A stretch of 64,000 bases of DNA from Naegleria gruberi. Lineage: Eukaryota. Shown here one piece after another: positions 3,224 to 46,344 of the stretch. The stretch lies in the NCBI GenBank assembly GCA_000004985.1, contig GG738893.1, one strand, 5' to 3'. Position numbers and translations under genes: made by a program. The notes under the pieces were generated by a model that was not told the DNA's origin, did no database searches, and saw only the letters and a program-made list of their open reading frames with translations. Position 1 is the first letter of the stretch. Every line of letters begins with the position of its first letter.

Positions 3224-4339
3224 TTATTTTCTTGGGAATGCAAACATGTATTGAGGAGGAACAGCGACTGGGTAATCCAAATCTTGAGCAGCTCTAATTG
3301 GCCAGTAAGGATCATTCAAATCTTGTCTTCCAATTAATACTAAATCTGCCTTTCCATCCTTCACTAAATCATTAGCAAATTTAGCTTCCACTATTTTACC
3401 AACTGCACCAGTGGCCAATCCATCAACTGATTTCTTGACGCCCTCAGAGAATGGAACTTGATAACCTTGCACAATTCCAATTGGTGAAATTTTGGCTTTG
3501 GCATTATTACCACCAGATGAACAGTCCAACAAGTCAACTCCAGAATCACGTAAAACCTTTGCTAGCTCTGTAGTGTCTTTCATGGTCCAGCCCTCTTCAC
3601 CAACGTATTCATCAGCTGAAACTCTGACAAATAATGGCATTTCAGTTGGAATATTCTCTCTAATTCTTTGAACAATTTCAATCAAGAATCTAATACGATT
3701 TTCGAATGATCCACCATAAGCATCAGTTCTTTGATTTGAAGTTGGTGAAAGGAATGAGGAAATTAAATATCCGTGAGCTCCATGAATTTCAATAACATCA
3801 AATCCTGCCTTAACAGCTCTCTTAGCAGCATCCACAAATTGTTGAATCACTTCTTGAATTTGTTCAATGGACAATTCTGCAGGAACTTTGTGATTATCAT
3901 CAAATGCAATTGGAGATGGACCAACAACGTCCCATCCTCCTTCTTCATTTGTCAATGCTTTTCTTCCTAGAGCTTCCCACAATCTTCCAGTTGATGCCTT
4001 TCTACCAGCATGACCTATTTGTATTCCGATATGTCCACCCTGTTCGTGTGTAAATTGACAAATTTTAGACAACATGTCAACATGTTCATCTTTGTAAATT
4101 CCTAAACATCCTGGTGAAATTCTACCAATATCCGAAACACCAGTGGCTTCTACAATAAATAAACCAGCTCCACCTACAATTCTACTGCCAATATGTTGAA
4201 CATGCCAGAAATTAGCAAATCCATCAACCGATGAGTACTGACACATTGGGGAGACTACAATACGATTCTTTAAAGTCAATCCTCTAATTTTGAATGGTTG
4301 AAAGAGTGGAGGAACAGATGAGATATCTTGTGCTGACAT
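3224..4339 (-). CDS. NADH:flavin oxidoreductase, Old Yellow Enzyme family (YqjM/NamA-like class), intronless
   Basis: Uninterrupted 371-aa ORF. Hallmark motifs are present: FKIRGLTLKNRIVVSPMCQYSS near the N-terminus (compare Bacillus YqjM ...KNRIVMSPMCMYSS) and the TIM-barrel FMN/substrate signature IHGAHGYLISSFLSPTSNQRTDAYGGSFENRIRF. No intron, and length is typical of the family. Confidence 0.85.
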   Translation of the reverse strand: MSAQDISSVPPLFQPFKIRGLTLKNRIVVSPMCQYSSVDGFANFWHVQHIGSRIVGGAGLFIVEATGVSDIGRISPGCLGIYKDEHVDMLSKICQFTHEQGGHIGIQIGHAGRKASTGRLWEALGRKALTNEEGGWDVVGPSPIAFDDNHKVPAELSIEQIQEVIQQFVDAAKRAVKAGFDVIEIHGAHGYLISSFLSPTSNQRTDAYGGSFENRIRFLIEIVQRIRENIPTEMPLFVRVSADEYVGEEGWTMKDTTELAKVLRDSGVDLLDCSSGGNNAKAKISPIGIVQGYQVPFSEGVKKSVDGLATGAVGKIVEAKFANDLVKDGKADLVLIGRQDLNDPYWPIRAAQDLDYPVAVPPQYMFAFPRK

Positions 4340-8195: not shown

Positions 8196-10775
8196 ATGTC
8201 GACACTATCAACCGAGTCTTTTTACACAACTCTTGAACAAAAATTCTCTACAGTCTTTTTCTTTCTGAATGGGGTTGTTGCTAACTCATCCAATCCATTC
8301 CGAATTTTGATTAATGATGAGGTAAATAATTGCTCTCTGAAAATTTATTTTACCATTTATCCGAAAGTGTGTTTTAAAGCTTGAATCCAACTGTAATAGT
8401 GTTGTCTATGCAACACAAGTCGAAGAACCAAGAGTTGGTGGCCATCACTTTATTAGAGTGAAAGCTGATTGGTAAGTTTCTCAAAGTTTAGTTTTCTTTA
8501 AACCAAAGAAGTCCATTGTTGAGATCAGGATCAGGTTTATCGAGCCAATACGAAAGATATAATTTGAGTATTAATGGATTCTTTATTTTGATTGATTGTA
8601 CTGAAGAAATTGGAGGTTCAGATACTGGAATTCGTATCATTCAACAAAAACATGACAATTTTGGACCAAATTATAAGAATTACAAGTTTGGAAATAAGGA
8701 GACTGAGAATGCAATTTTAAAAGGTTTATCATCTACCAGAAATTTAATCAAATCCAATTTACCACCTAAACAACTTGAAGAACAATTGAAAAAACTTGAA
8801 CAATTGTTTAGAAAGGACATTTTGACAAGAGAAGAATTTGAATCTAAATGGAAAATGGTTTACAATCCAGCAAATAGTGGATCAGAAATGACCTATGCCA
8901 CCACTTCTAATAATCAACAAACTAATACACAGAGTAGTGGCAATATGGATGGCCTCACACAAGATCAATTAGATTTACTTTCCAAGTTGAGAGGGTAAGT
9001 ATTGTGAAATTCACTTTCTAAATTGTAACATTTGTAATAGATTGATTGGAAGAGGCATTATCACACAGGAAGAGTACAATGCCAAGCTCAATAAGCTGAA
9101 AGAAGAAAATCAAAAATCCTCCCCTCCAAAACAACCATCTCTTACTCCAGAACAGAAGCAAATGATTGAAAAATTGGAAAGCCTTTTATCAAAGGGAATT
9201 CTCACACAGGAAGAATTCGAAATGAAAAAGAAACAAATTGTTGGAAATAATTCTCAAATCAGCAGCTCTACATCTGGTCAGAAATCTCCAACTGCAGTAG
9301 AAACAATTTCATTTGAAAAGTATGCACAACAATATGAAGATTTAAAGTGCATGATGAATGAATCTCAAAAACACCAAATGAGAACTCTTGAAAGATTTGT
9401 CAACGATGGAATAATTACACAAGACGAATATGAAATGAAAAAGAAAAAAGTTTTGGGAAATCTTTACACTCCAACAAATTGGATTTATCAAAAGCAACTT
9501 TCTGAAAGAGAACAAACCAGTAGCTCTCCATCTTCTCCTTCTACTCCTTCCTCTACAGAATCTCTATCCGAAAGTCAAAAAGAAAGAATTGAAAAATTGA
9601 AAATATCAAAGGAGAAGGGAATTTTAACCAATGAAATGTTCGAATCGAGAATGCAACAAATTTTGGATGAAAACAAGCCAGTTCAAGACACTGAAGATTA
9701 TTCACATCTCACCTCTGATCAACAAAATTATATTGCCAAACTGAAATATTTCAAAAAGATGGGAATTCTTACACCATCCGAATTTGACATTCAAATGGAA
9801 AAAATCATTTCAGACCCTGATAGTGTCAAGACCGGTGCTCTAGTTTCTTCACCTCAAACACCTACAAGTAGTTCATCAAATTCCTCTCCAAAAACCCCAA
9901 CAGACTCCAAGCCATCCACTCCAACCATTATTTCTAACAAGTCAAGTAAGCCATCTACTCCTACTCCTGTCTTTACTTCAGAAGAAGTGGAAACTCCAGT
10001 CACTCCAACTGATAGCTCTCAAAAGAATCAACAAACCAATACAGTTCCAAAATTGGAAGAAAAGAAGCCAACCACACCAGTACCTATCGTTGAAACCAAG
10101 AAAAAACCATCTTCAGAAAAGATTGTTAAGGAAAGTCCAAAAGAAACAACTCCTAAACAATCATCAACACCAATCAGTAGTGGTGCAGAGCAAGATGAAG
10201 AAATTCAAGATCAACTGGAAAGACTCAGATCACTTGTCGATATGGGAATCATCTCAGAGGAAGATTACAAACAAAAGGAAGAAAAGCTCTTGAAGGGAAC
10301 ACCAACCCCTGCATCTCCAGCTGCTACACCAGAAGAATCCAAACCTGTAGTCAATCAACAAGCAACCAATAATCAAGTCAAACAATTGGAAAAGCTCTAC
10401 AATTCTGGAATTATTTCAAAGGAAGATTTTGAGCAAAAAGTCAACAAAATTCTTGGAAAACCTCAAAATGAGACAACCACCACAAAGGTTGAAAGTCCAT
10501 CCTCTCCAAGAAACACCTCAAATGTCAAAGATCAAAATGTTAAAGTAGAATTGGCCAAATTGAAGAAACTTTTGGAGAATGGAATCATTGCACAAGAACA
10601 ATTCGAAATGAAACAATCTAAATTATTGGGCACTTCTCCATCAAGTACCACCACTGAAACTGAATTATCATCAGAACAAGAGGAGCAAATTGCCAAATTG
10701 AAATCCTTCCTTGATGAGGGTCTCATAGATCAGGACGATTATCAAGAAGAGTTGAATAAAATCTTGAATAAATAA
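8196..10775 (+). CDS. SHOCT-repeat protein with about 10 tandem SHOCT-like motifs separated by S/T/P-rich linkers. Exons (5' ones tentative): 8196..8321, 8380..8471, 8512..8994, 9041..10775
   Basis: Ten repeats match the SHOCT (PF09851-type) consensus '(L/I)xKLxxLxxxG(I/L)ITxEE(F/Y)ExKKxK(I/L)LG'. Examples: LEQLFRKDILTREEFESKWKMV, IEKLESLLSKGILTQEEFEMKKKQIVG, LERFVNDGIITQDEYEMKKKKVLG, LERLRSLVDMGIISEEDYKQKEEKLL, LAKLKKLLENGIIAQEQFEMKQSKLLG, IAKLKSFLDEGLIDQDDYQEELNKIL. The 46-bp intron 8995..9040 (GTAAGT...TAATAG) joins ...LSKLRG to LIGRGIITQEEY in frame. The upstream exons (8196.., 8380..) and the 40-bp intron 8472..8511 are inferred only from frame continuity. They encode a non-repeat N-terminal region (FFFLNGVVANSS...GGHHFIRVKAD...NGFFILIDCTEE). 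Confidence 0.6.
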
Positions 10776-13646: not shown

Positions 13647-15317
13647 TTATTTCTTTTCCTTTCCACATAAATTTTTGTGATTTGACCAATCCTGCAATTG
13701 GTGTTCTCTGGAACAGTAATATACAGATCTGCATTTAGAGCATTGTTTTAAATTTTGTGTACTATCACAAATAGCACATGCTTTAACTGGTGCCTTGGAA
13801 AGCATTTTTGTTTCTTCAAAGGTTCCAAGTTTTGATGTGCCTGTTTGGAAATTATAAGAATAGAAATTAGAATCATCCATCTTGGAAACATTACTACGAA
13901 GGGCATTTTGCACACGACGTTTTGCATCTACTTATGAAAAACTGGTTGGATTAAATGATCCTTTTCTTTCAAGGTAATTAGCTGCCTTATTCAAGTGAGA
14001 CATTATTTCAGAATGGCTATCCTTATCTTTGGCAAATGAGGGATTGTTCTTGAAGAGAGTTCCGTAGTAATATATTTGAATGGCATCAGCATATCGATGA
14101 ATAGATCCACAATCTTCTGCTGGGCAACAGTTTTCACCATCTTCAACTGTAATAGTTTGATCATTTGAATCCTCAATATTTTCAACTGTGATTTTGTGTC
14201 TGAATGAATCTCCCAAATCATACATGTAAAACATTTCATCTCCAGTCTAATTACATTGTAGTAAAAAGTAAAAAACACATACCTTTTCAAGTAAATGGAA
14301 TAGTTCAACCTTTGTATCATCTGCAGTGTAAATGTTGTGACTAAACTCGTGCATTTTGTCTACAGCTTGACTGTAAATTGGACCAAATACTAGGTCTGGT
14401 TGTGGCATTCTTTGATTTTTAGAGTCTTTCTTTTCGAATGGGATTTTTCTAAAATAGTAGGCATGATAGTTTCGGCACCATCCAAGAACAGGTGAAATAA
14501 CACGATCTTGCAAACTTTGTAGAGTAATAGAACCAGGTAATTTGACTCTTCTCCAAATGTGTGGTCTAAAGTTCAAAACTTGAATTCTCAACTGGTACAT
14601 TTTGCTTCTGAGATGAGTATTTGGTGAGGCAGTGACTTTCTCCACGAGTTCGTCTGCCTTCCTTTCCAGAACGTCCATTCCACCACTGAACATTAAATTT
14701 TGTCTTGCAAACATGAGCTGTTGAACCTGTTCAATACTCAATTCACTCTGATCTTCTCCTTCCACATAATCATCAACTGAACAGAAAATAGATTCCAAAC
14801 ATTTAGCAATTTGGTTGTGAATTTCACCTTTTTGTGCTTTGGAAATTTCTCCAATATCCAATGCAGATTTTAGTGTCTGCACAACAATTTCTCTAATATT
14901 CTTGATTAATTCTCTTTCCTGCTTATCATCAAACACCTTGTCGTGATCACCCAATTTTGCAAAACTAACAAAAGCTTCACCATACAAAACATATCCAGGA
15001 GCAAAACTTGGTTGATTAATAACACATTCTTGTCCACTATTCAGGGCTTTCAATATAGCCAACCTCTTTTCTTCCTTCTCCGAGAGTTGATCAGCCCTTA
15101 TCAATGAAGCCTTGCATCTAGCTTCAAGCAGGAAGGCAAGGTCATCCTTGCTGATGGCAGAATACTTTTCTACATTGCTGTTGGAAAATACCTCATCTAA
15201 CAAAGCTAGCAGGGAATCAACTTGTTCTGGTTTATCCAGTAGAGAAAGTACCTCCTTCTTCTTTTCCAATACATCGGATGAACTTTGTGGTTTGATCGTA
15301 ACTTTGTATTTGGACAT
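13647..15317 (-). CDS. PRiA4b-ORF3-like domain protein with a C-terminal MYND zinc finger. Exons: 14283..15317, then about 13943..14246 (or read through to 13935), and a MYND exon ending 13647
   Basis: The PRiA4_ORF3 signature reads HIWRRVKLPGSITLQSLQDRVISPVLGWCRNYHAYYF ... (36-bp GTATGT..TTAG intron 14247..14282) ... FYMYDLGDSFRHKITVENIE. Compare family consensus IWRRixVPxxxTLxxLHxVIQxAMGWxxxHLHxF ... YxYDFGDxWxHxI. The downstream MYND finger is CAICDSTQNLKQCSKCRSVYYCSREHQLQDWSNHKNLC. The two parts share a frame but are separated by a single TAA (13932..13934); see findings. Confidence 0.65.
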
Positions 15318-15972
15318 TTTGTTGATTGATAAAAATGATTGAATAATAAACCAAAAAGTTTAGCCTAGTGATGAATCATCAAGCAAAGGTCCTAAAGAAG
15401 CTTGTGTTGAAATTGATGAAACAGATATGTCCTGTTAGAAATCCTCCACTTGAAATTTACCAGAGAGCGAATCAATGCATGTTGTTTTTTCGTTTTTTTT
15501 TAGAAATTAAATAACGGTTACTATTGGCGTTTGACCTAATTTTCACTTTACAATTAGTTAATACTGAAGAGATTTATAGACAAGGAAGGTAATCCAATGA
15601 TTGGATTTGCACCTAACAGTATTAATGTAGATGGATGTAATAATTTTACAAAATGTGGATATTGTTGAATGTGAATTGAAAGATGGGACGTTAATTATGG
15701 AGTTGTCTTACCACAAAATCAACCTGAGCTATTTCCTGCCTTTGATGTCAGTGATGCAAATTGTATCTTTGAACTAACAACAAAATGGATTGTATAGTTG
15801 TTTATGAAATATTTACATGATAATTTTTCATGTATACGAAAAACAAACTGTGTATTATTTTGATGAAAATATTCCAATAATGAATATGACATTGTGAGTT
15901 TACTGTTGGAAGTCTGATTTGTTATTGTGATGAGTTGTCATTTACCAATCAAAAAAAAAACAAGAACAACAA

Positions 15973-17367
15973 ATGACCAAGAAGAAAACAGGAATCATGA
16001 CCAACAACGCACCACCATCATCATCACAAATCAAACAACAAGTGCAAGACACAAAAAACCAAACAAGCCTCCTCAAAAAGCAACTCGACTCTATCGTACA
16101 ACAATATGAACAACAATTGGCAAATTTGGAAAAGTTAGAAACTGCCTTGAATGAGAAGGATGAACAAGTCAAAAGTAGAGAAATTCAAGTCGCTCAAAGG
16201 GAACAATCTGTAAAAGATANNNNNNNNNNNNNNNNNNNNNNNNNNNNNNNNNNNNNNNNNNNNNNNNNNNNNNNNNNNNNNNNNNNNNNNNNNNNNNNNN
16301 NNNNNNNNNNNNNNNNNNNNNNNNNNNNNNNNNNNNNNNNNNNNNNNNNNNNNNNNNNNNNNNNNNNNNNNNNNNNNNNNNNNNNNNNNNNNNNNNNNNN
16401 NNNNNNNNNNNNNNNNNNNNNNNNNNNNNNNNNNNNNNNNNNNNNNNNNNNNNNNNNNNNNNNNNNNNNNNNNNNNNNNNNNNNNNNNNNNNNNNNNNNN
16501 NNNNNNNNNNNNNNNNNNNNNNNNNNNNNNNNNNNNNNNNNNNNNNNNNNNNNNNNNNNNNNNNNNNNNNNNNNNNNNNNNNNNNNNNNNNNNNNNNNNN
16601 NNNNNNNNNNNNNNNNNNNNNNNNNNNNNNNNNNNNNNNNNNNNNNNNNNNNNNNNNNNNNNNNNNNNNNNNNNNNNNNNNNNNNNNNNNNNNNNNNNNN
16701 NNNNNNNNNNNNNNNNNNNNNNNNNNNNNNNNNNNNNNNNNNNNNNNNNNNNNNNNNNNNNNNNNNNNNNNNNNNNNNNNNNNNNNNNNNNNNNNNNNNN
16801 NNNNNNNNNNNNNNNNNNNNNNNNNNNNNNNNNNNNNNNNNNNNNNNNNNNNNNNNNNNNNNNNNNNNNNNNNNNNNNNNNNNNNNNNNNNNNNNNNNNN
16901 NNNNNNNNNNNNNNNNNNNNNNNNNNNNNNNNNNNNNNNNNNNNNNNNNNNNNNNNNNNNNNNNNNNNNNNNNNNNNNNNNNNNNNNNNNNNNNNNNNNN
17001 NNNNNNNNNNNNNNNNNNNNNNNNNNNNNNNNNNNNNNNNNNNNNNNNNNNNNNNNNNNNNNNNNNNNNNNNNNNNNNNNNNNNNNNNNNNNNNNNNNNN
17101 NNNNNNNNNNNNNNNNNNNNNNNNNNNNNNNNNNNNNNNNNNNNNACTAAGAAAACAAACACTTCTGATTTGAATTCAAATGTTTTAGGAACAAAATCAA
17201 ATCATTTCAAAGTTAAACTCATATCTAATTGTAATAGTTTAATGATTGGATTTGCACCTAAAAGTATTAATGTGAACGAAACAAATAATAATACAAAATG
17301 TGGATATTATTTATATACTACTACTGGAACCATTTATTCTCAGAATGGAGAATCAAACAAAAGCTAA
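15973..17367 (+). CDS. coiled-coil protein with a C-terminal SPRY-like segment, copy 1 of a local family; interrupted by a 926-bp N-gap
   Basis: The N-terminus is a Q-rich coiled coil (MTKKKTGIMTNNAPPSSSQIKQQVQDTKNQTSLLKKQLDSIVQQYEQQLANLEKLETALNEKDEQVKSREIQ). The C-terminus after the gap reads HFKVKLISNCNSLMIGFAPKSINVNETNNNTKCGYYLYTTTGTIYSQNGE, which is SPRY-like. The middle is unknown (N-run). Confidence 0.5.
   Translation: MTKKKTGIMTNNAPPSSSQIKQQVQDTKNQTSLLKKQLDSIVQQYEQQLANLEKLETALNEKDEQVKSREIQVAQREQSVKDXXXXXXXXXXXXXXXXXXXXXXXXXXXXXXXXXXXXXXXXXXXXXXXXXXXXXXXXXXXXXXXXXXXXXXXXXXXXXXXXXXXXXXXXXXXXXXXXXXXXXXXXXXXXXXXXXXXXXXXXXXXXXXXXXXXXXXXXXXXXXXXXXXXXXXXXXXXXXXXXXXXXXXXXXXXXXXXXXXXXXXXXXXXXXXXXXXXXXXXXXXXXXXXXXXXXXXXXXXXXXXXXXXXXXXXXXXXXXXXXXXXXXXXXXXXXXXXXXXXXXXXXXXXXXXXXXXXXXXXXXXXXXXXXXXXXXXXXXXXXXXXXXXXXXTKKTNTSDLNSNVLGTKSNHFKVKLISNCNSLMIGFAPKSINVNETNNNTKCGYYLYTTTGTIYSQNGESNKS
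16220..17145. other. assembly gap (926 N)
   Basis: Run of n characters. Confidence 1.
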
Positions 17368-17479
17368 TCAATGAATAATAAAAATTTGTTTATGAATATG
17401 ACTGTAAACTTCTTGAAATAACATTATTGAATAACATGATTTATTCTTATTTTGGCTATCGAGATTAAGTTTATTTCTT

Positions 17480-18973
17480 TTACAGGTCATAAATATCTAC
17501 ATGATCTGCTAAATTCATTTCTCGAATGTATTTTTCACCCTCATCGCTTATATTGTTGTCAACTGCGTTAAGTCTTGTTAATTGCTTCATTCCACTTAGG
17601 GCTTTAACGCCTTCGTCACCAATTTCATTGTAACCTATATCTAGAAAAGTTAATTGTTCCATTTCACTTATAAATTTGGCTCCCTCATCTCCAACAGCAT
17701 TGTGATAGATAGAAAGCTGTGCTAGGTGCTTCATTTCACTGATTTGGTTTGCACTTTTCTCTCCAATATTATTATGAGCAATTATTAGATACGTTAAATT
17801 ATCCATTTTACAGATATATTGTATACCTATTGGTGTAATATCAATACTAGAAACATTAAGTTCAGTTAATTGGTTCATTTCACTTATAGATTGGACTCCG
17901 TTATCCCTAATTCGATTATCAGAAATGTCAAGCTTAATTAAATTTTTCATTTGGCTAATGTGAATAGCCCCGTACGGTGTAATCAAATTTTCAGCTATAG
18001 AAAGATGAGTTAATTGATTAAATGATGAAATGTATTTTGTTCCATCCAATCCAATACAACAACTGTTCACATTAAGATCTGTTAATTGTTTCATTTCTCC
18101 AAAACACTTAACACCGTCATTAATAGAATTAAACCCAATATCGAGTTTCCGTATATTCATCATTTCACTAACATACTTGGCACCGTTCTCGCCTATATTA
18201 TTACTAGCAATATCAAGATTAGTTAATTGTTTCATTCCACTAATAAATTTGGCTCCTTCGTCACAAATATTGTTGCCAACAATTTTAAGACCAGTCAACT
18301 GTTTCATTTCACTAATAAATTTTGCTCCATCCATAGTAATTTCATTGGCACGGATATTAAGAAAAGTCAACTGTTCAAGGCCACTAATATACTTGGCTCC
18401 TTCTGGGCCAATATTATTATTAGCAATATGAAGTTGTTTCAATTGCTTCATTTCACCAATATACTTGGCTCCTTCTACACCAATATAATTACCCGTAATA
18501 AGAAGATAAGTTAGTGATTTCAATGATGGTAAATGTTTAGCAATATCAAATCCAAAATAACAGAAAGTCATATAAAGATCAGTCAATTGTTCCAATGAAC
18601 ATATATACTTGAATCCACTTGGATCAATCTTAGAATTAAATTCTATATTGAGTTTTTTCAATTCTTTCATCGAATCCAATATCTCACAATTAAATCCACC
18701 TTCATTCTCTATCACTCTTAGATTTGCAACATTTTCCAAAAACGGCAATTGACCAACCATTTCCAAATCACTACTACGTGTTATCGAGAGGTGTTTACAT
18801 GAATTTTTAATGACATGAAACCACTGTTTGGAAACCAATGCACACCTCTGTACAATAAATTTAAAATCATCGTGAAAAGATAAAATTTCAAAGAGTGAAT
18901 CGTCAGAGAATAGATTATTTTCTTGTATTTTCGAAAATGAAGAAGTGATGGAATGTTTTGGTTGTGTGATCAT
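17480..18973 (-). CDS. F-box-like / leucine-rich-repeat protein (RNI-type 28-residue LRRs, ~14 repeats)
   Basis: 497-aa ORF. The N-terminus has an F-box-like motif (LFEILSFHDDFKFIVQRCALVSKQWFHVI). Perfect RNI-type LRRs follow, e.g. NNIGPEGAKYISGLEQLTFLNIRANEITMDGAKFISEMKQLTGLKIVGNNICDEGAKFISGMKQLTNLDIASNNIGENGAKYVSEM. Confidence 0.8.
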   Translation of the reverse strand: MITQPKHSITSSFSKIQENNLFSDDSLFEILSFHDDFKFIVQRCALVSKQWFHVIKNSCKHLSITRSSDLEMVGQLPFLENVANLRVIENEGGFNCEILDSMKELKKLNIEFNSKIDPSGFKYICSLEQLTDLYMTFCYFGFDIAKHLPSLKSLTYLLITGNYIGVEGAKYIGEMKQLKQLHIANNNIGPEGAKYISGLEQLTFLNIRANEITMDGAKFISEMKQLTGLKIVGNNICDEGAKFISGMKQLTNLDIASNNIGENGAKYVSEMMNIRKLDIGFNSINDGVKCFGEMKQLTDLNVNSCCIGLDGTKYISSFNQLTHLSIAENLITPYGAIHISQMKNLIKLDISDNRIRDNGVQSISEMNQLTELNVSSIDITPIGIQYICKMDNLTYLIIAHNNIGEKSANQISEMKHLAQLSIYHNAVGDEGAKFISEMEQLTFLDIGYNEIGDEGVKALSGMKQLTRLNAVDNNISDEGEKYIREMNLADHVDIYDL

Positions 18974-19419
18974 TTTTTTTAAATATTAATTTTAATATTT
19001 AAATTAAGCCACATAAAAAATATTCGGAATATTTTTCGGAACCACAAGCGAAGAAAGATGTAAAGCATAACAGTGATTGAATAAATAGAGCAGGTTGTAG
19101 CAAGTTTTTCAAAACAACAAACTTACTGAACCAACAATCAATAGATTCGTTGCCTTCACCGTTCATACAGTCAAAGACTGTAGCGGGACAGTCGCCATAT
19201 TCCTGGCAGGCTTCCCGTCTAAATTATTAAATGAAACAAATAATGGCGCCTTTTTTTGTAGCTACGTTTTCATTTGCATAGTTTCTGATTCTTGAATCAC
19301 AATTCTAAGGAATTCAAATAATATTAAAATTTAATTTTTAAAAGAAAAAACAATATTAATTTACTCATTGCCTGTAAAATAATCATGAAAATATCTAAAT
19401 AATACAAAATGTCTGAGCA

Positions 19420-19469
19420 NNNNNNNNNNNNNNNNNNNNNNNNNNNNNNNNNNNNNNNNNNNNNNNNNN
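19420..19469. other. assembly gap (50 N)
   Basis: Run of n characters. Confidence 1.
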
Positions 19470-19591
19470 GTCAAAGTTTCATTCACATTACTGTGTATAT
19501 ATTTGTTAAATAATAATTCAATATTCACTGATTCAATAATGTGTAAAGATCTATTTGGGATTTGGGTCCACTATACACAAATAGCACCTTC

Positions 19592-20182
19592 ATGATGGAA
19601 GATGCCATTGGAACCATCATTTCAACCATCAAGAACGGTAAAGTCAATATGGATCACAAAGCTTTAGAGGCGTGGGCAATTCATAAAATGATTGAACTTC
19701 GAAAGGTTCGTTCCAATCTATTTCAGTTAGAGAAGGGTAAGTTTTTGGTAAATCTAATTAGTACTATAATAATATTATTATTATTACTAATATTAATTAA
19801 TATTAATACTACAAAATGATGATGTTGATATTGATGAATGTGATGAATAATCATGATGAATGAAATTTTTGAAATTATTGGATAAATTTATAACAGGAGA
19901 TGCAATTCAATGGAATGGAAAGAATTACATGATTACCAAAAAGTAAGTGTTTGTCCAATTCATTAATGATTAACAACAACAAATTGATACCTTTCAATAT
20001 GAATACCATTATTATTATTACTAATATTAACAAGACATTCTGATGGAGGTGGATTTAACATTTTGGATGTGGAATCTCAATTAATATTACAAAGAGCACT
20101 CTTGGATGAAAGTGTAGTGCCTTGCTTTGTTGTAAAGGGTGAATTCGTTCCAATTCATGACAATGATAGATACTTGTTGTAA
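19592..20182 (+). CDS. small (~113 aa) three-exon protein, hypothetical (weak profilin-like C-terminus). Exons 19592..19736, 19897..19942, 20035..20182
   Basis: MMEDAIGTIISTIKNGKVNMDHKALEAWAIHKMIELRKVRSNLFQLEKG|DAIQWNGKNYMITKK|HSDGGGFNILDVESQLILQRALLDESVVPCFVVKGEFVPIHDNDRYLL*. Introns are 160 and 92 bp, both GTAAGT...AG and very A/T-rich. The KKxxDGGGxNI...LIL segment faintly recalls the profilin C-terminus (GKKGSGGITIKK / GKEGVHGGGLN). Confidence 0.45.
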
Positions 20183-20457
20183 CCATTACAATAAAATGTA
20201 ATACTATTTAATATTTAATTTATTTAATTTATTTAATTTTTTTTATAATTAAATCCCAAGCTCACTCCAGAAATGATCTTTTTTTCTTTTTTCTTTTTTT
20301 CTTTTTCTACAACTTTATCATTCTTAACAAGTGAGCCATAGGAAAAACATGAGTGCTCCATCACTCACATTCATTGTGAGAGCTTGGCTGATCCCGAAGA
20401 TCACTTTAAAAAAAAGCTCGTACGGGATTACCAATCAAAAAAAAAACAATAAAGAAC

Positions 20458-20723
20458 AAATGACCAAGAAGAAAACAGGAATCATGACCAACAACGCACC
20501 ACCATCATCATCACAAATCAAACAACAAGTGCAAGAAACAAAAAACCAAACAAGCCTCCTCAAAAAGCAACTCGACTCTATCGTACAACAATATGAACAA
20601 CAATTGGCAAATTTGGAAAAGTTAGAAACAGCCTGAATGAGAAGGATGAACAAGTCAAAAGTAGAGAAATTCAAGTCGCTCAAAGGGAACAATCTGTAAA
20701 AGATGAAGAAAATCAAATGAGAA
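20458..20723 (+). pseudogene. second copy of the 5' end of the coiled-coil/SPRY-like family gene (near-identical to 15973..16219), with a 1-bp deletion and truncated by an N-gap
   Basis: 20440..20723 aligns to 15955..16219 with a few substitutions. The copy reads ...EKLETA* (ttagaaacagcctgaatg) where copy 1 reads ...EKLETALNEK (ttagaaactgccttgaatg), a frameshift. It runs directly into gap 20724..20961. This could be an assembly or sequencing artefact rather than a true pseudogene. Confidence 0.35.
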
Positions 20724-20961
20724 NNNNNNNNNNNNNNNNNNNNNNNNNNNNNNNNNNNNNNNNNNNNNNNNNNNNNNNNNNNNNNNNNNNNNNNNNNNNN
20801 NNNNNNNNNNNNNNNNNNNNNNNNNNNNNNNNNNNNNNNNNNNNNNNNNNNNNNNNNNNNNNNNNNNNNNNNNNNNNNNNNNNNNNNNNNNNNNNNNNNN
20901 NNNNNNNNNNNNNNNNNNNNNNNNNNNNNNNNNNNNNNNNNNNNNNNNNNNNNNNNNNNNN
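20724..20961. other. assembly gap (238 N)
   Basis: Run of n characters. Confidence 1.
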
Positions 20962-21014
20962 CAAATCTACTCCCTTCTACTTGTACCTACTGTACAAATG
21001 AATATTGTACCCAG

Positions 21015-22241
21015 ATGAGCTTTGTTCCATCTGATTATTGGATCATTCCAGTTAGCGTACTTGTCATTATATATTATGTAATTTTATTTGCTACTAAATC
21101 ATTTCAGTTACCAGCCATTAAGAGAAGATTGTTAACTCCTTACACACCAATTGTATGTGTCTACTTTGAGACTCAGGAAATGTACGCACTCGATAGTTAT
21201 TGTGCCAAAGTAAGATTAACGATTTTAGGAACTGTTATGAATTGGGTAATTTTGATTTGCATATTCACTGTTATAAGATTCTACTATCTCAGAAATCTGT
21301 ATCATGCTATGGCACAATCGAATACATCTGTAAAGATCGACAGTATTAGAAGGAGAAAAGTACTTTCTAGTGTATGGTTTGGTATTGTTTTTACAGGACT
21401 GATTTCTCTCATTGTTTCATTATTTGTTTCATTACCATACTTGGCTCAAATATTTATTGTGTTTCACAATGACGATTTTGATGAGTTTGCTTTGCATAAC
21501 ATGTTAATAGCCATTTATATCTTGATTGGTTGCATTATTGGAGTTGTGACAGTTCTTGTTGATATGAGTTTAAATTGGAAAAAGATCAAACAAAGAGGAA
21601 TTAGACATTTTTTGATCTTTGACGATCCATTCATGTTCAGAGTTGACATGGCACTATTCATAGTAATTATTATATTGATTATTATTGCTTCAATTCCTAA
21701 AAATCAAGTTCATGTAGATTTATTTTTCAGATTCTTAATCTATTTTACATTTACTTTTGTTGCAGGAGGTGTAGTAATTATCAAATCAATGATTGAAAAG
21801 TGGATGGTGAAAGGGAAAGACTATGAGTCAAATTTCATTCAATACCTTAAAAATCCAGAATTTCAAGAATTACTCAAAAATTACTGCCTTAAAGAAATGT
21901 CCTCTGAAAACTTTGCAATTTATATGGACCTTATGAAGTTAGATAAGGAGGGAAAGAATTCAACAATGGACCTTGAAACTTTACAAACTCTAGAGAAGGA
22001 TTATTTTCTTGCTAATTCAATGTATGAAATCAATATTTCACATGCTGCAAAAATGAATTTCTATAAATTGTTGAATAGTGCCAAACAGAATGAACCTCCA
22101 ACTGTTGGTGAATTGATTGAAGCTCTACTCACTGATGTTGTTAGAAATTTGTATGATACATTCTCAAGACTCGAAAGAACTAAAGAGTTCAAAGTTTGGC
22201 TTGAAATTTATGATATTCAAATAAAAAATCTATTACTCTAA
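21015..22241 (+). CDS. seven-transmembrane protein with a C-terminal RGS domain (7TM-RGS hybrid)
   Basis: 408-aa ORF with about 7 hydrophobic helices (IIPVSVLVIIYYVILFA, LTILGTVMNWVILICIFTVI, VWFGIVFTGLISLIVSLFVSL, LIAIYILIGCIIGVVTVLV, ALFIVIIILIIIASIP, FLIYFTFTFVAGGVVII). A C-terminal RGS signature follows: NPEFQELLKNYCLKEMSSENFAIYMDLMKL...FLANSMYEINIS. Confidence 0.7.
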   Translation: MSFVPSDYWIIPVSVLVIIYYVILFATKSFQLPAIKRRLLTPYTPIVCVYFETQEMYALDSYCAKVRLTILGTVMNWVILICIFTVIRFYYLRNLYHAMAQSNTSVKIDSIRRRKVLSSVWFGIVFTGLISLIVSLFVSLPYLAQIFIVFHNDDFDEFALHNMLIAIYILIGCIIGVVTVLVDMSLNWKKIKQRGIRHFLIFDDPFMFRVDMALFIVIIILIIIASIPKNQVHVDLFFRFLIYFTFTFVAGGVVIIKSMIEKWMVKGKDYESNFIQYLKNPEFQELLKNYCLKEMSSENFAIYMDLMKLDKEGKNSTMDLETLQTLEKDYFLANSMYEINISHAAKMNFYKLLNSAKQNEPPTVGELIEALLTDVVRNLYDTFSRLERTKEFKVWLEIYDIQIKNLLL

Positions 22242-31068: not shown

Positions 31069-32424
31069 ATGTTCTCAAATAGGGGATTAGCCATCACGTT
31101 TTCTGTAGTTGTTTTAGTTGTTGTGATAATTTCCTTCTTGTTCATATTGAGAGGAGACAATAGCCAAACAAATAATATTCGAAAGGAATCGGTAGTTTCG
31201 GTTTTCATACCACATTCGCGAGGAATTAAATATAATTTACAAGATTATGGTGATTATATGAAGACATCACAGAAACAAATATTGGAAATTGCCCAAGAAA
31301 TTAGAAAGAATGAAATTAAACTTCCGGAAACAGTACTTGTTTCACAGTTAATTGTTGGAATTTCGGCAAGAGATAAAGTTTATTATCTTGATTTGCTGAC
31401 AAGCATTCAAATGAATTTATTGAATCCATCAGTTTCTGAATATCATTTACTTCAAATTGACGAAACTTACAATTCTGAAATCATGTCATTGATGTTTGCT
31501 GATAAGAAGATTAAAATTCATTACATTCGTGAACAGTTGAATAGAGAAATATTTGTGAAATATTGCAATGAGCATTTGAAGGACAAACTCATTGTCTATT
31601 TGAATCAACCTGACATTTATTTTGATCATTCATTGATGCATGCTTCTAAATTAAAGAATGGAGAATTTGTGAAAATTCACAAGAGGATTAGTTTGGCAAA
31701 ACCATACGATTGTGAGGTAAGTTTAGGAACAATTTATAAATATTTATCAAGAGAATTATAGAATGGACAAGGAACTATTCCTGATGGTGCAATTTTCAGA
31801 ACCAGTGCTGATAAACCATTAGAATTGGGAACTGAACCAGATTGGAATGGACAATCAGTTATTTCAATGATTTTCAATGCATTCAGTGTTCATAATTGTG
31901 AAGTGTCAACAGCAATTACTGGATGGTTCTTGCACGATCCAACAAACATTGATAAGAAGGCAGAAAAGGAGGCAGAACTCAGAGAATTGGAACGTAAAAA
32001 ACAGGAAAAGATACGACAAGAAAAGTTGGAAATGGAAAGAAAAATCAAAGAAGCAGAGGAAAAGAAGAAGAAAATGGAAGAGGAGAGAAAACTCAAAGAG
32101 GAGCAAGCAAAGAAGCAAAAGGAAGAGGAAGAGAAAAAGAAAAAAGAAGAAGAAGAAAAGAAGAAAAAGGAAGAAGAGGAGAAGAAGAAAAAAGAGGAGG
32201 AAGAAAAGAAGAAACTTGAGGAAGAGAAGAAACTCAAAGAGGAGCAATTAAAAAAAGAAGAAGAAGAGAAGAAACAAAAGGAAGAACAAGAACGAAAGCA
32301 AAATGAAGAGAAGAAACTCAAAGAGGAAACTGAAAACAAGAAACTAGATGAAGAAAATCAATCCAAGTCAACCAACAACTCTTCAATTAGTGCCGCTACC
32401 TCATCCAATCCTAAATCTGCCTAA
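31069..32424 (+). CDS. type II membrane protein, paralog B, with a C-terminal K/E-rich charged tail. Exons 31069..31716 and 31762..32424
   Basis: Signal-anchor is AITFSVVVLVVVIISFLFIL. Shared motifs: LTSIQMNLLNPSVSEYHLLQIDETYNSE, KIKIHYIREQL, DKLIVYLNQPDIYFDHSLMHASK. A 45-bp intron (31717..31761, GTAAGT..TATAG) joins ...KPYDCE|NGQGTIPDGAIFRTSADKPLELGTEPDWNGQ.... The tail is about 120 residues of (E/K)n repeats (EEKKKKEEEEKKKKEEEE...). Confidence 0.6.
31975..32345 (+). repeat. coding GAA/AAG (Glu/Lys) low-complexity repeat within paralog B
   Basis: gaagaggaagagaaaaagaaaaaagaagaagaagaaaag... repeated. It generates spurious ORFs in other frames and on the opposite strand. Confidence 0.8.
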
Positions 32425-32871: not shown

Positions 32872-35800
32872 TTGTTTGAAATTTCATATTTGGGTTATTC
32901 TTCAAAGAAAATGCAAAGAATTACCATCTCAATGTTTGATGACCATAATAATAATAATAATTCTACTAATTACCAACAAGGAGAAGGGAATTCAACATCC
33001 TTAACTTCACCTCTCACTCTTCAACAATATGCTTCACCCAATCAAAATTTAATCACTCCTCTCACACCAAATACTGAATTGTTGAATAATGTAATCGAAT
33101 CTTTAAGGCAGGTTAAAATAGATGGACAACAATACTTGGATACATCAAATTATACAGATAATAGTAATGATGTTAATATATTTGGAGGTGTTTCATCATC
33201 AGCCATGAATTGGAATCATTTACTGTCGAACAACATGTATCAGCAACATCAGCAAGTTGAGCATGCCCATATGATTCAGACAGAAGAATCAAACAATTTT
33301 CATAATGGCAATACATGTAATTCCTCTTCATCATTCAGTAACAATGTAAATAATATCATCAAGGAAAGCAACACTAGTAGTGATGAAGCAAGCAACTTGT
33401 TCTCACTCTTTGATGCACATAGAAAGATTCTTCTATTTGATAATTTGATTGAGGGCGAGCTCATTCGGATGACTGACCGATCCGCTTCAATGAATCTGGA
33501 CAATAACGCCTTAATAGATTTAAGCGAAGATCGAATGAGAAATAGGAACTCCCAAAATCAAACCTCAGAAACCTCAATTCAGCAAATTTCCTTAGATTGT
33601 GACAATGCTTGTCAATCTCAAATTTCTGATATTTTCAATGTTTCACAAGCTCTTCAGAATATAACTAGCTTATCACCCTCAGATCAAAACCAATTATCAA
33701 GATTGATATGGACTGCTTTGATGAATAATTCTAATAATTCACTTACTGATGATTCATCAAAATCTTCATCATTCAATTCAATAGAAAATAATTCGGAATT
33801 GGGGAATAGTGGAGCATACAGAATGTTTGAATCATTTGAGGATGTGCAAATGCAATTTTCACAACATGTGGAAGCCCTAACTTTGCATCAAATGGTGGAT
33901 GAAGATAATTCCCCAACAACAAAATCCAAGTATAGTTCTCAGCCAGTACTAAATTCTAATGGCAGATACTCAATTGACAATTTGAGTAATTCAATGATAA
34001 TGCAAAATGGAAATTCCTCCTCAGTCATTCCTCATTACTCAGATAGTGTGGACATAACAACATTTCTTAATAATCAATTTTCTTCTTTACAAAATCAGAG
34101 TTTGGAATCATCTCAAAGCTCTACAATAATCAGAGGTAATACTGGTATCAGTCCAACATCACCTCAATCTCATTATTCAACACCAATGCAGCAACTTTCA
34201 GACTCTATGACTGAGTCCACACAACAACAATTCATTATCTCTCCGAAAGGCAACTTGAATAGAATATTCAATAATCCGCAACAGGCAACCACACCAAACT
34301 CAGTATTTGATGTTTCTATTAATACTCAACCCAAACAATCAACATTATCATCTCCTCGAAGAATTTCCTCATGTTCTTCATCGATGATATCCAGCAGCCA
34401 CTCACATACTTCCTCTACGAGATCCACTCCAACAACCATCTCGGAACAAACCCTCATTCAATCTACACCAATATTAACACCATCTGATACAAATCCAGGC
34501 CAAGATGAATGTATCCAACCACCACTCCTTCTTCCCAAAACTTCAACCCAAACCTGTTGTGGTGTTGGCAACAACATAAATTTCTCCCTTCCTGGTGATA
34601 GCGAAAGTGCGGCGGTGGTTAAACAATTTGGCAAGAATAATCAGTCAAAAAAATATTCAAACAACAATTTTAGTGAAACTACATTGCCACATACGAGTTG
34701 TGTTGTTAATAACGTTGTTGGTCAGCAGCATTTCATCACCACCACCACTACTAGCACCACTGAAAATCATAGTAGTCATCATAGTAACCCACTTGAGGCA
34801 TCATCTGTTTTAAATATTCAGAAAAGCCTTTCATTACAACAATCTTTAGATAGTAGTAATAGTCCTCGAGTTGTTGTACCATCACCAACATCAGGTAATT
34901 TTCACAACAGCAATCCTCCAACTTTGCTTTGCATCACATCAAAACCAACGGAAAGTAATTTGGACATTATCACCCAACAAACCCTTAACAATATCTCAAC
35001 CGATTATACAATGTCTTCACATTCTCCAATATCATCCTCTAACTCTAATGAACAAAATGGCCAAAACAAACAATATCAAGGGGTTATGCCATTAGAAGGA
35101 AATCAATCGACTTGGGGAGTTAAAGTAAATAGAAAATATAGACAATTAAGAAAATCTTTAAAGACATGCAAACATTTTGAGGATAATTATTTTGTTCTTG
35201 AATTAAACGGGCAAGGTAATAATCCTGGAAATCCATCAGCTGGACAACAACCACCAAAACCAAAAAAGCCAAAGGCTAAAGCTCAACCACATGCTAATCA
35301 TGATGATAAAAAACCATCCATACCGATTCCTTACAAGGAACAAGTTAATTTGATGGGAGAATTTAGTGTAGCTAAAAGTATAGATGATGAGGTTCTTCCT
35401 CTATCAGTTTTAAATAGATCCGAAGAGAGTGATTTATATCTCACAACTCCTAACAGTACAAGTTCAGCATCTTCAAGGTCTAGCTCGGCTAAGGATATGA
35501 CTAAAAAGAAGAGAAAGAATACCTCTCAAGAACCAACGAGAAAGAATAGAAAAAAGGATTCAGAACAAGAAATGTCACTTGGTGGATTAGATTCTACCTA
35601 TAATCATGATATTTTACCTAGTATCAATATGACACTTAATCTTGCTCCAATGCAAACAATACCTTCATTAGATAATTCAGAAATTATGAATTTTAATAAG
35701 GTTACCCCTGATATAATGTCCTATCAACCAAATAATAATATTCATCATCACCAACAACAAATTCCTTCCCTAATTTCACCACACAAACCTCTAGACTACC

Positions 35801-36663
35801 AACCAATAACTCCAAATTTAATTAATTATGAAAATACCACCTCATCAAGCCCACATATCATCAACTTTGAAAATCAAGCCTCCTCAACAAATCAAATTAA
35901 TAACCAAGCAGAAAATAGAAATCTATTTAGTTCAGGGTTTCCTTCAAACAGCAGCTTTGGATTATTTTCTACAAATGAAGATTTTACAACAATGAAATTA
36001 CCAAGCAATAGTAGTATTGACAGCTTTTTCAAGGCAGATCTGACGGATGAAAAGGCAACAAATATGCCTAGAAATATGTCTTCCAGTTCTGACTTTTTAC
36101 CTTTGGAAGAAACCATCGTTCATCACCTTCCTATTACAAATTCAAATATGAATAATCACCATCCAATTCACCCTATTACTGCCACACAGACTCAAATAGT
36201 CCCACCAAAAATCGATATTAAACCACCCAAAAAAGAAGTTGAAAAGAATCATCTCACTAGATGTATGAGTCATGCAAGTTTGTCAATGTTAGATGAAGAA
36301 GAGGAGGAAGAACCTGTTCCTGTTGTAAACAATAATATTTCTAATATTCCTTCAATAGCCATTTCCACAAAAGAAATTCACCATTTGGCTCAAGAACCAA
36401 CTATGGAGGATATTAAGAGTAAGAGTCCACTAATAACCCCATTGAATGCTGTTTTATATAAGAATATTTCTGTGAGTAATATGGATTTGGTAAAATTGGA
36501 TGTACCAAGTGCTTGTGTGCTACGACCAATTCCATCAGAATCAATGATAGAGAAAGATCACGCACATTGGATTAATGAAATCAAAACACTGCCTTCGAAT
36601 GATTCTCTGGCAAATATGGCTATAGTTGATTTTGATATTCTTTCTGAAACAAAAAAGCATTAA
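32872..36663 (+). CDS. large (1263 aa) S/T/N/Q-rich, predominantly disordered protein, hypothetical
   Basis: Single long ORF with codon-like periodicity throughout and no stops. Homopolymeric N/S/T/Q/H runs. A C-terminal ~100 aa is more complex (KEIHHLAQEPTMEDIKSKSPLITPLNAVLYKNISVSNMDLVKLDVPSACVLRPIP...). No family recognised. Confidence 0.4.
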   Translation: MFEISYLGYSSKKMQRITISMFDDHNNNNNSTNYQQGEGNSTSLTSPLTLQQYASPNQNLITPLTPNTELLNNVIESLRQVKIDGQQYLDTSNYTDNSNDVNIFGGVSSSAMNWNHLLSNNMYQQHQQVEHAHMIQTEESNNFHNGNTCNSSSSFSNNVNNIIKESNTSSDEASNLFSLFDAHRKILLFDNLIEGELIRMTDRSASMNLDNNALIDLSEDRMRNRNSQNQTSETSIQQISLDCDNACQSQISDIFNVSQALQNITSLSPSDQNQLSRLIWTALMNNSNNSLTDDSSKSSSFNSIENNSELGNSGAYRMFESFEDVQMQFSQHVEALTLHQMVDEDNSPTTKSKYSSQPVLNSNGRYSIDNLSNSMIMQNGNSSSVIPHYSDSVDITTFLNNQFSSLQNQSLESSQSSTIIRGNTGISPTSPQSHYSTPMQQLSDSMTESTQQQFIISPKGNLNRIFNNPQQATTPNSVFDVSINTQPKQSTLSSPRRISSCSSSMISSSHSHTSSTRSTPTTISEQTLIQSTPILTPSDTNPGQDECIQPPLLLPKTSTQTCCGVGNNINFSLPGDSESAAVVKQFGKNNQSKKYSNNNFSETTLPHTSCVVNNVVGQQHFITTTTTSTTENHSSHHSNPLEASSVLNIQKSLSLQQSLDSSNSPRVVVPSPTSGNFHNSNPPTLLCITSKPTESNLDIITQQTLNNISTDYTMSSHSPISSSNSNEQNGQNKQYQGVMPLEGNQSTWGVKVNRKYRQLRKSLKTCKHFEDNYFVLELNGQGNNPGNPSAGQQPPKPKKPKAKAQPHANHDDKKPSIPIPYKEQVNLMGEFSVAKSIDDEVLPLSVLNRSEESDLYLTTPNSTSSASSRSSSAKDMTKKKRKNTSQEPTRKNRKKDSEQEMSLGGLDSTYNHDILPSINMTLNLAPMQTIPSLDNSEIMNFNKVTPDIMSYQPNNNIHHHQQQIPSLISPHKPLDYQPITPNLINYENTTSSSPHIINFENQASSTNQINNQAENRNLFSSGFPSNSSFGLFSTNEDFTTMKLPSNSSIDSFFKADLTDEKATNMPRNMSSSSDFLPLEETIVHHLPITNSNMNNHHPIHPITATQTQIVPPKIDIKPPKKEVEKNHLTRCMSHASLSMLDEEEEEEPVPVVNNNISNIPSIAISTKEIHHLAQEPTMEDIKSKSPLITPLNAVLYKNISVSNMDLVKLDVPSACVLRPIPSESMIEKDHAHWINEIKTLPSNDSLANMAIVDFDILSETKKH

Positions 36664-44497: not shown

Positions 44498-46344
44498 ATG
44501 GTAAAAAATTCATCACCTCCAACCAATGGAGAATATCAACCAACACGGATTGAATTATTTAAGCAAAATCATGATATTGCTTTTAATTTCTTGAAAAAGG
44601 GTATTGAACTTGATGAGAGCAAACAATTGGAAAAAGCCAGAGATTACTATCGTGAGGGTATGTAAAAAATTGTTGTAAAATTATTGTAACTGATGATTTT
44701 TTAGGCATTCAATCGATTCTACAAGCAGAAAGAGTTCCTCTCTCACAACAGGAAAGGTATCAAGCAAAAGCCATGTTGGATAAACTTTCAAAACACAAAA
44801 CCATGTTTTATGAGAGAGTGAAAGAAATTGATCAAATTCTTTTCAGTCAACAGCAAGCAAAACAAACTCAATTGGATAATCTCAGCAATAACAATGCAAG
44901 TGGAGGATTTTTCTCTGGGTTTATGAAAATGTTTTCACCACTCTCAACACCTCCTAACAGTTCATCCAACAATAATAGTAACACTCAACAAGCTATCTCA
45001 CAAGAAACAAGAAAATTGTGTAGTGTAAATAATAATAGACACGAGCCAATCTATAATCAATATACGACCAACAGCCAAGTGATTAGGAGCTTCCCAGCAG
45101 TTTCTTCAATTGGTCAATCTTCAACCAACATGTACAATAGTGTCAATATTTGTGATGGTATTTCTTCATCTGAGAAGAGAAGTCCAACACCACCAAGAAA
45201 TAGAAGTAATTCAAATGATAAGATTTTATTTGGCCACTATGATGCTCTTGGATCACTTCCACAAAACAACATGGGTCACTATCAACAACCACCTCAACAA
45301 TCATCTCAACAACAACAGCAACCTTTAGTTCCAAAACAAAATTCTGTAACTGCACTCAGAAATACTACCTCAGCAACATCATCAACAACAACAGCTAACA
45401 ATAAGAAACCTTCCCTTGATCAAATTCCAGAACTCAAAGGTGTTGATAGGAAACTTTTGGATCACATTTTGAATGAAGTGATTGAAACAAAAACAACTAA
45501 TTGGGATGACATTGCTGGACTTAAGGATGCCAAACAAACACTTCTTGAAACAGTAATCTTACCAAGTATAAGACCTGATCTTTTTAATGGACTGAGAGCT
45601 CCATGTAGAGGTATTTTACTTTTTGGACCACCTGGTACAGGTAAAACAATGATTGCAAGAGCATGTGCCTCTCAATGTAATGCTACTTTCTTTTCTATTA
45701 GTGCTGGGTCCTTAGTTTCGAAATATCATGGCGAAGGTGAAAAATTAGTGAGATGCTTATTTGCTGCTGCCAGATATTTGCAGCCGTCTGTGATATTTAT
45801 TGATGAAATTGATTCGATACTATCTGCACGTAGCTCTGAAGAACATGAGGCTAGTAGAAGAATGAAAACAGAGTTTATGATTCAAATGGATGGTGTTAGT
45901 AATATGAATGGGAAAGAAGATAGAGTTCTTGTAATGGGAGCTACAAACATTCCAACCGAATTGGATGAAGCTATTCTCAGAAGATTCACCAAGAGAATAT
46001 ATATACCTCTTCCTGATCATGCAGCAAGAGCATCACTCATTAAGCAACTTTCACATGGTCAAAATATGAGTTTGAGTGAAACCGATATCAACAAGATTTG
46101 TGTAGCCACTGAAGGATTTTCTGGAAGTGATCTGACAGCCCTGTGTAAAGAAACGTCAATGGTTCCTCTGAGAGAAATAAGTATGGATCAACTCATTTCT
46201 ATAGATGCACGAAAGATTAGACCAATCGTGCTCAAGGATTTCCAATCTTCTCTCGTGCATGTTAGACCTTCCACATCACAAGATACTATTAAGAAGTTAG
46301 AAAAGTGGAATGAAAGCTATGGAACTTTTGCAAAGGGTATTTAA
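44498..46344 (+). CDS. meiotic-clade AAA ATPase, spastin-like (MIT-like N-terminus plus AAA+ plus Vps4-C-like end). Exons 44498..44657 and 44705..46344
   Basis: [103 protein letters not shown]...RVLVMGATNIPTELDEAILRRFTKRIYIPLPD is almost collinear with human spastin ([102 protein letters not shown]...). The 47-bp intron 44658..44704 (GTATGT...TTTTAG) lies inside the MIT-like region. Confidence 0.85.

Follow-up and report, generated by a model that had tools for sequence, protein, structure and literature searches.

Does the stretch between about 15.5 and 21 kb of this 64,000-nt window of the Naegleria gruberi genome (contig GG738893.1; the window is the whole stretch analyzed) hold a young tandem array of genes broken by the assembler, or something else? 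Three pieces of one gene family lie here on the same strand (+): a decayed fragment (fragment A, 15597-15797), a gene interrupted by an assembly gap (copy 1, 15973-17367), and a second 5' end that runs into another gap (copy 2, 20460-20723). An earlier note had read them as a young tandem array, collapsed or broken during assembly. The favored explanation, to which a probability of about 0.6 is given, is that one truncated gene and two gene fragments of different age truly cluster here, in a poorly assembled stretch. This stretch is probably heterozygous.

The two 5' ends are linked by a direct repeat: positions 15942-16218 and 20428-20704 align over 278 columns with 97.8% identity (BLASTN E 6e-134), and their starts lie 4,486-4,487 nt apart. 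The repeat is real and far beyond chance. Similarity begins abruptly at a shared 22-mer, TTACCAATCAAAAAAAAAACAA, located at 15942-15963 (+) in copy 1, 10 nt before the ATG, and found identically at 20428-20449 (+) in copy 2. With up to three mismatches allowed, this leader motif occurs at exactly two sites in the window, for 0.03 expected by chance. It includes a CCAAT sequence, and a promoter or leader role can only be inferred. That the 22-mer might be a mobile element or a promoter motif of general use was also considered and rejected, as it has only two sites in 64 kb and is not conserved upstream of the environmental homologues. No relation was found between the flanks 5' of the 22-mer at the two copies.

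Six differences separate the copies. Three of them cluster in four leader bases (15964-15967: one inserted base and two substitutions), and two are coding substitutions, C/A at 16050 (D26E) and T/A at 16143 (synonymous). The last is the absence in copy 2 of the T present at 16147, leading to a TGA at 20634-20636, codon 59. Both copies stop at a run of undetermined bases (N): copy 1 ends at 16219, where gap 1 begins at 16220, and copy 2 at 20723, 19 nt further in the same gene, where gap 3 begins at 20724. Near-identical direct copies about 4.5 kb apart with a shared 5' motif, the contact of each copy with a gap, and the single-base deletion of copy 2 had all been noticed earlier, and all are borne out. 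What is not supported is the young tandem array of whole genes. The repeated unit comprises only the leader and about 88 codons: the 278 nt shared at 98% do not amount to a gene with its spacer, as neither the upstream flanks nor the genes in between are repeated. Outside this 5' segment of about 280 nt, the other local piece is a SPRY relic that is only 85% identical and internally deleted and, hence, older.

The gene itself can be recognized through its homologues. The 5' coding part of copy 1 (15973-16219, +) consists of 82 codons of an N-terminal coiled coil, interrupted by gap 1. The 3' coding part (17146-17367, +; TAA at 17365-17367) encodes 73 aa, that is, a linker and the first half of a SPRY domain. 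Pfam searches with the two window fragments alone returned only weak coiled-coil noise. The 3' piece is, over 17149-17364, 100% identical to the C-terminal 72 aa of XP_002668714.1 (EFC35970.1; hereafter P0001), a 205-aa N. gruberi "predicted protein, partial", and it shares 54-61% identity with the SPRY regions of the homologues P0002 and P0003. P0001 is built of a KCTD-type BTB_2 domain (PF02214, 1.9e-11, 44.6 bits for a cut-off of 21.4), a linker, and the start of SPRY, and it thereby supplies the BTB_2 that falls in gap 1 of copy 1. Unlike copy 1, it is without a coiled-coil N-terminus, its gene model being cut at the 5' end within BTB_2, downstream of the coil.

In other members of the family, the domains are better preserved. 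P0003, from N. gruberi, and the environmental P0004 and P0005 carry BTB_2 and a complete SPRY above the Pfam cut-offs: BTB_2 scores 58-65 bits in the paralogues (best 8e-18), and SPRY (PF00622) scores 27.5-36.7 bits in P0002-P0005 (cut-off 26.3). P0006-P0008 possess a long N-terminal coil ahead of BTB_2. All three parts are present in P0028 (ENA ERZ27315067, contig k141_1444522, from a metagenome), a single uninterrupted open reading frame (ORF) of 402 aa. Residues 20-83 of P0028 align without gaps with residues 18-81 of the N-terminal piece of the window (E 8e-9), and residues 142-343 are 63% identical to P0001. Because P0028 is collinear with both, the coil at the 5' end and the SPRY piece at the 3' end in the window are assigned to one gene type, with the predicted order coiled coil, BTB_2, SPRY. 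The proposal of one coiled-coil/SPRY-like family is thus confirmed via these homologues, with the addition of a KCTD-type BTB_2 that is invisible in the window because it lies in gap 1.

A profile search of 1.8 billion cluster representatives gave 48 matches at E<=1e-30, many of them spanning the whole of BTB_2 to SPRY in proteins of 290-420 aa; P0028 ranked first among them. Intact family proteins are about 290-420 aa long and appear to be intronless where seen. The family is a lineage-specific, Naegleria/heterolobosean one. In an AlphaFold2 model of P0004, the C-terminal 150 residues form a beta-sandwich (predicted local distance difference test, pLDDT, ~85-94), and a long N-terminal helix is present. 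When JGI metagenome contigs were scanned with the 88-aa coil, a single match resulted, on a TARA contig (L003). This was discarded: it is an unrelated coiled-coil protein that shares "QQYEQQLA" and has no BTB or SPRY.

None of the three window pieces is demonstrably intact, and copy 1 is the only candidate gene among them. Its SPRY domain ends early, after ...YSQNGESNKS, a stop shared with P0001. All complete paralogues, on the contrary, run ~59-61 residues past this point; P0028, for example, keeps the last ~59 SPRY residues that copy 1 lacks. On the AlphaFold2 model of P0004, the missing tail corresponds to five of about 14 SPRY strands. No trace of a SPRY tail was found in any frame of the 113 nt that separate the copy 1 stop from the next gene. 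Because of the early stop and the absence of a tail in any downstream frame, copy 1 cannot encode a complete SPRY beta-sandwich. With a SPRY that ends ~59 aa early, it is probably decaying, or functional only as a protein with coil and BTB. The reading frame of ORF 15973-17367 is kept over the 926 N of gap 1; this was not used as evidence, as gap lengths are estimated and the frame would be kept by chance in one case out of three.

The 5' coding part of copy 2 (20460-20723, +) extends up to gap 3 and is frameshifted: codons 1-58 are 98% identical to the copy 1 protein, and the 1-bp deletion, between 20633 and 20634, is directly followed by the stop. Family sequence resumes in the +1 frame after this stop, LNEKDEQVKSREIQVAQREQSVKDEENQMR, and continues up to the gap. 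It covers six (EENQMR) of the ~58 aa that are absent where the coil should join the beginning of P0001. Copy 2 is probably a recent duplicate of the leader and the first ~88 codons, hence a 5' gene fragment. A full-length copy would need ~0.9 kb beyond the start of gap 3, for a gap estimated at 238 nt and a next ORF that begins at 21015. If the 238-nt estimate is correct, the gap is too short for the rest of a family gene, and the sequence that follows it shows no similarity to the family. The unrelated upstream flank, together with the clustering of three of the six differences in four leader bases, argues that copy 2 is a true second locus and not a misplaced or copied read.

Fragment A (15597-15797, +) represents a 3' relic of a family member, an old and decayed SPRY tail with no 5' part. 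Positions 15596-15666 match 17241-17311 of copy 1 with 84.5% identity over 71 nt (BLASTN E 1e-16), and a tblastn search with P0002 gives a match over 15570-15776. By three-frame translation, the fragment starts with MIGFAPNSINVDGCNNFTKCGY (the MIGFAP...CGY block), followed by a frame-changing deletion of ~26 codons. After IVECELKDGT, in the +1 frame, another small deletion changes the frame again, and the fragment closes with NYGVVLPQNQPELFPAFDVSDANCIFEL and a stop. Stop codons also interrupt the frame within the fragment, which aligns to the SPRY tails of the paralogues. A third family fragment at 15590-15675, resembling the C-terminus of copy 1, had been described previously; the resemblance stands, but the relic extends in degraded form to 15797 and does not end at 15675.

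The three N-runs of the window, which had been said to coincide all with the duplicates, are not equivalent. Gap 1 (16220-17145, 926 N) interrupts copy 1, and gap 3 (20724-20961, 238 N) directly follows copy 2, so that both abut family sequence. Gap 2 (19420-19469, 50 N), on the other hand, is flanked by unique, non-family sequence: neither side of it resembles the family or another long repeat. The coding content expected in gap 1 by homology is ~570 nt, corresponding to the remaining coil, the entire BTB_2, and the linker. This estimate is the sum of the ~58 absent aa, with P0028 as yardstick, and the first 132-133 residues of P0001, which nothing in the window matches. A contig island of 2,274 nt, between gaps 1 and 2, holds the 3' end of copy 1 and a leucine-rich repeat (LRR) gene; the island between gaps 2 and 3, with copy 2, measures 1,254 nt (19470-20723). 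Order and copy number in this stretch depend on mate pairs.

Eight long ORFs of the window have exact matches among N. gruberi NEG-M proteins (EFC40291-40299, EFC40372-40378; UniProt D2VS65-D2VS85), all located on a single 337,165-bp scaffold. The annotation of P0001 places it elsewhere, on a scaffold of 16,833 bp, where it may represent the allele, a second assembly of this locus, or a third paralogue; other annotated N. gruberi members of the family are found on scaffolds of 1,084 and 20,111 bp. In the first homologue search, no model annotated on the 337-kb scaffold covered the C-terminal piece of copy 1. An old-yellow-enzyme type gene (Oxidored_FMN) at 3224-4339 (-), EFC40373, has a twin identical at 369 of 371 residues, EFC35632, on a scaffold of 7,875 bp; the pair indicates redundant small scaffolds in the assembly, either haplotigs or very recent duplicates. 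The assembly is redundant in this neighborhood, because P0001, on its separate scaffold, shares the C-terminal 72 aa of copy 1, and because of the twin of EFC40373 as well. Naegleria has been described as mainly heterozygous diploid (PMC9928731), which makes it plausible that the small redundant scaffolds are alternative haplotypes. Doubt about copy number and integrity, voiced in the earlier note, is therefore justified by both cases.

This redundancy opens the way to a reading in which the duplication is only apparent: a single family gene would exist per haplotype, the copy 2 island would be a misplaced piece of the alternative haplotype or else the true 5' end that the gene of the 16.8-kb scaffold lacks, and the deletion would be a base-call error. 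The copy 2 contig is indeed bounded by gaps on both sides. Its deletion lies 90 nt from the contig end, 16219 is A where 20705 is G, and the first codon after gap 1 encodes T where P0001 has L, a pattern expected of ragged contig ends. Near-identical small scaffolds for the region are demonstrably part of the assembly, and the P0001 model, cut inside BTB_2, lacks the coil part that copy 2 supplies. Such an artefact is nevertheless unlikely. The upstream sequences are wholly unrelated and the leaders differ by an indel and two substitutions; for alleles, a structural rearrangement would therefore have to break off exactly at the leader. Moreover, local duplication of family sequence is attested independently by fragment A. 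The opposite possibility, a young head-to-tail array of full-length genes collapsed by the assembler, would place the remainder of copy 2 in an underestimated gap 3, with further copies perhaps missing altogether. Two 5' ends that are 98% identical, in direct orientation and both terminated by gaps, would fit an array of this kind, as would the other members on the 16.8-, 1.1-, and 20-kb scaffolds, which suggest that family members tend toward unassembled sequence. It is, however, quite improbable: what is repeated does not make up a gene unit, the sequences flanking the copies differ, the genes between them occur only once, and no SPRY tail is found upstream of copy 2. Gap 3, at an estimated 238 nt, falls far short of the ~0.9 kb needed. 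Furthermore, the sole 3' end in the window is truncated, and fragment A has diverged by 15% and undergone internal deletion, signs of a birth and decay spread over time rather than of one young array.

A real cluster of one truncated gene and two fragments accommodates these observations: fragment A would be the old piece (85% identity, internal deletions) and copy 2 the young one (98% identity). Near-identical family sequence, from paralogues and from the second version on the 16.8-kb scaffold, would most likely have stopped the Sanger assembler at copies 1 and 2. Several points weigh against this reading and the function attached to it. Copy 2 sits on a 1,254-nt island between gaps, with a placement that depends on mate pairs, and its deletion, so close to the contig end, is a putative lesion. 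Gap 1, with 926 N, is ~350 nt longer than homology predicts. The BTB_2 is not in the window and was assigned to copy 1 via P0001, on another scaffold, and the 73-aa SPRY piece has no Pfam SPRY match at E<0.1. Binding to Cullin-3 (Cul3) and substrate recognition, considered below, are read from domain families only. Taken together, this is an ordinary lineage-specific family with decaying duplicates in a gappy, redundant draft assembly. For the N. gruberi reference, this means that gene models at ~15.5-21 kb are absent, incomplete, or present again on small scaffolds, and that caution is required when counting members of the family.

The LRR_6-type gene between the copies (17480-18973, -; 497 aa), which is unrelated to the family, had been called an F-box/LRR gene. 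Its repeats are well supported (LRR_6 9e-44, LRR_8 1.3e-31), but the F-box part, at residues 24-61, remains below the cut-offs: F-box reaches 0.017 and 15.5 bits (cut-off 20.5), F-box-like 0.012 and 15.8 bits (cut-off 24.3). The copy 2 island also holds a small ORF (19592-20182, +), 112 aa in three exons spliced by eye at GT..AG, with two short AT-rich introns and no Pfam family. The right boundary of the locus is formed by a multi-pass membrane ORF (21015-22241, +; 408 aa) with a weak RGS-like C-terminus (E 0.0017, below the cut-off). Among annotated proteins it has no identical or near-identical counterpart, the best N. gruberi match being at 36% and a Willaertia magna relative at 28%; it is apparently an unannotated gene adjoining gap 3. 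On the left, two adjacent ORFs at 13647-15317 (-), with PRiA4_ORF3-like (8.9e-11) and MYND zinc finger (1.1e-11) matches, end just before fragment A and are probably exons of one gene. Scans for tRNA and Rfam families between 13 and 24 kb found nothing.

Elsewhere in the window, a 577-aa ORF at 9042-10775 (+) contains six SHOCT repeats (PF09851, E 7.9e-46; DNA repeat family D6). SHOCT, a short domain, is known mainly in bacteria; a protein with multiple repeats may reflect horizontal transfer or a eukaryotic role of the domain that has gone unrecognized. One receptor-like ORF (48248-52102, +; 1,284 aa) combines teneurin-type NHL and EGF repeats with a C-terminal protein kinase (1e-47), and carries internal DNA repeats of 105 nt and 168 nt (families D2, D5, D8, D9). 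The 523-aa ORF at 44773-46344 (+) is the UniProt spastin SPAST_NAEGR; the NCBI model EFC40297, from the same 90% cluster, has only 231 aa and looks truncated. Purine-rich overlapping direct repeats, ~21-27 nt apart, occupy 31999-32334 (+) and encode lysine/glutamate-rich low complexity. Just after them lies a long ORF without a Pfam match (32872-36663). Finally, the 810-aa EFC40372/D2VS65 (190-2622, -) has F-box-like (1.2e-4) and C-terminal SPRY (1.7e-5) matches, both just below the cut-offs. It is a candidate for a second SPRY-type ligase adaptor in the window, unrelated to the family of copies 1 and 2.

Judged from their domains, intact members of the family are probably single-chain substrate adaptors of Cul3. 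By homology and PDB relatives, the BTB_2 would oligomerize and recruit Cul3; the SPRY, as in its domain family, would bind the substrate, and the coiled coil would add self-association. The BTB part is nearest by sequence to KCTD7, SHKBP1, and KCTD13/TNFAIP1-type "adapter for CUL3-mediated RhoA degradation" proteins. These belong, with KCTD5, to the KCTD family of oligomeric Cul3 adaptors. The likeness extends to the profile PF02214 (up to 8e-18) and to the PDB chains of KCTD7, SHKBP1, and BACURD proteins (1e-8 to 1e-10). Animal KCTDs, however, have C-terminal domains of their own, are not known to carry SPRY, and are usually without a long N-terminal coiled coil. A BTB_2 joined to SPRY behind an N-terminal coil would thus represent an uncharacterized candidate Cul3 adaptor family in Naegleria and its relatives. 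There is nothing mechanistically surprising in it, since its two domains are familiar, as is the logic of the adaptor.

The SPRY side points to the substrate receptors of other E3 ligases. For the SPRY region of P0004, the top Foldseek matches are the SPRY domains of RanBP9/10, Ash2L, DDX1, SPSB2, and TRIM proteins; the fold of RanBP9/10, SPSB2, and TRIM is matched with a probability of 1.0 and a template modeling score (TM-score, target-normalized) of 0.6-0.78, at an identity of only 15-22%. Likened receptors of the SPRY type include the TRIM proteins (RING, B-box, coiled coil, PRY/SPRY), which resemble the family in their layout of coiled coil and SPRY, as well as RanBP9/10 of the CTLH ligase. 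It has been considered whether coiled coil, KCTD-type BTB, and SPRY might together make a heterolobosean analogue of TRIM, with BTB acting via Cul3 in place of RING, SPRY as a fast-evolving recognition surface, and the fragments as signs of rapid birth and death. This is a very improbable speculation; if true, the litter of fragments would mirror immune-type or conflict-driven families rather than assembly noise. The shared logic is most apparent with SPSB1-4 (SPRY and SOCS box, Cul5) and FBXO45 (F-box and SPRY), in which a SPRY beta-sandwich is likewise fused to a module that recruits the ligase. The module itself differs: a SOCS box, an F-box, or a RING in those receptors, and a KCTD-type BTB in the family described here.

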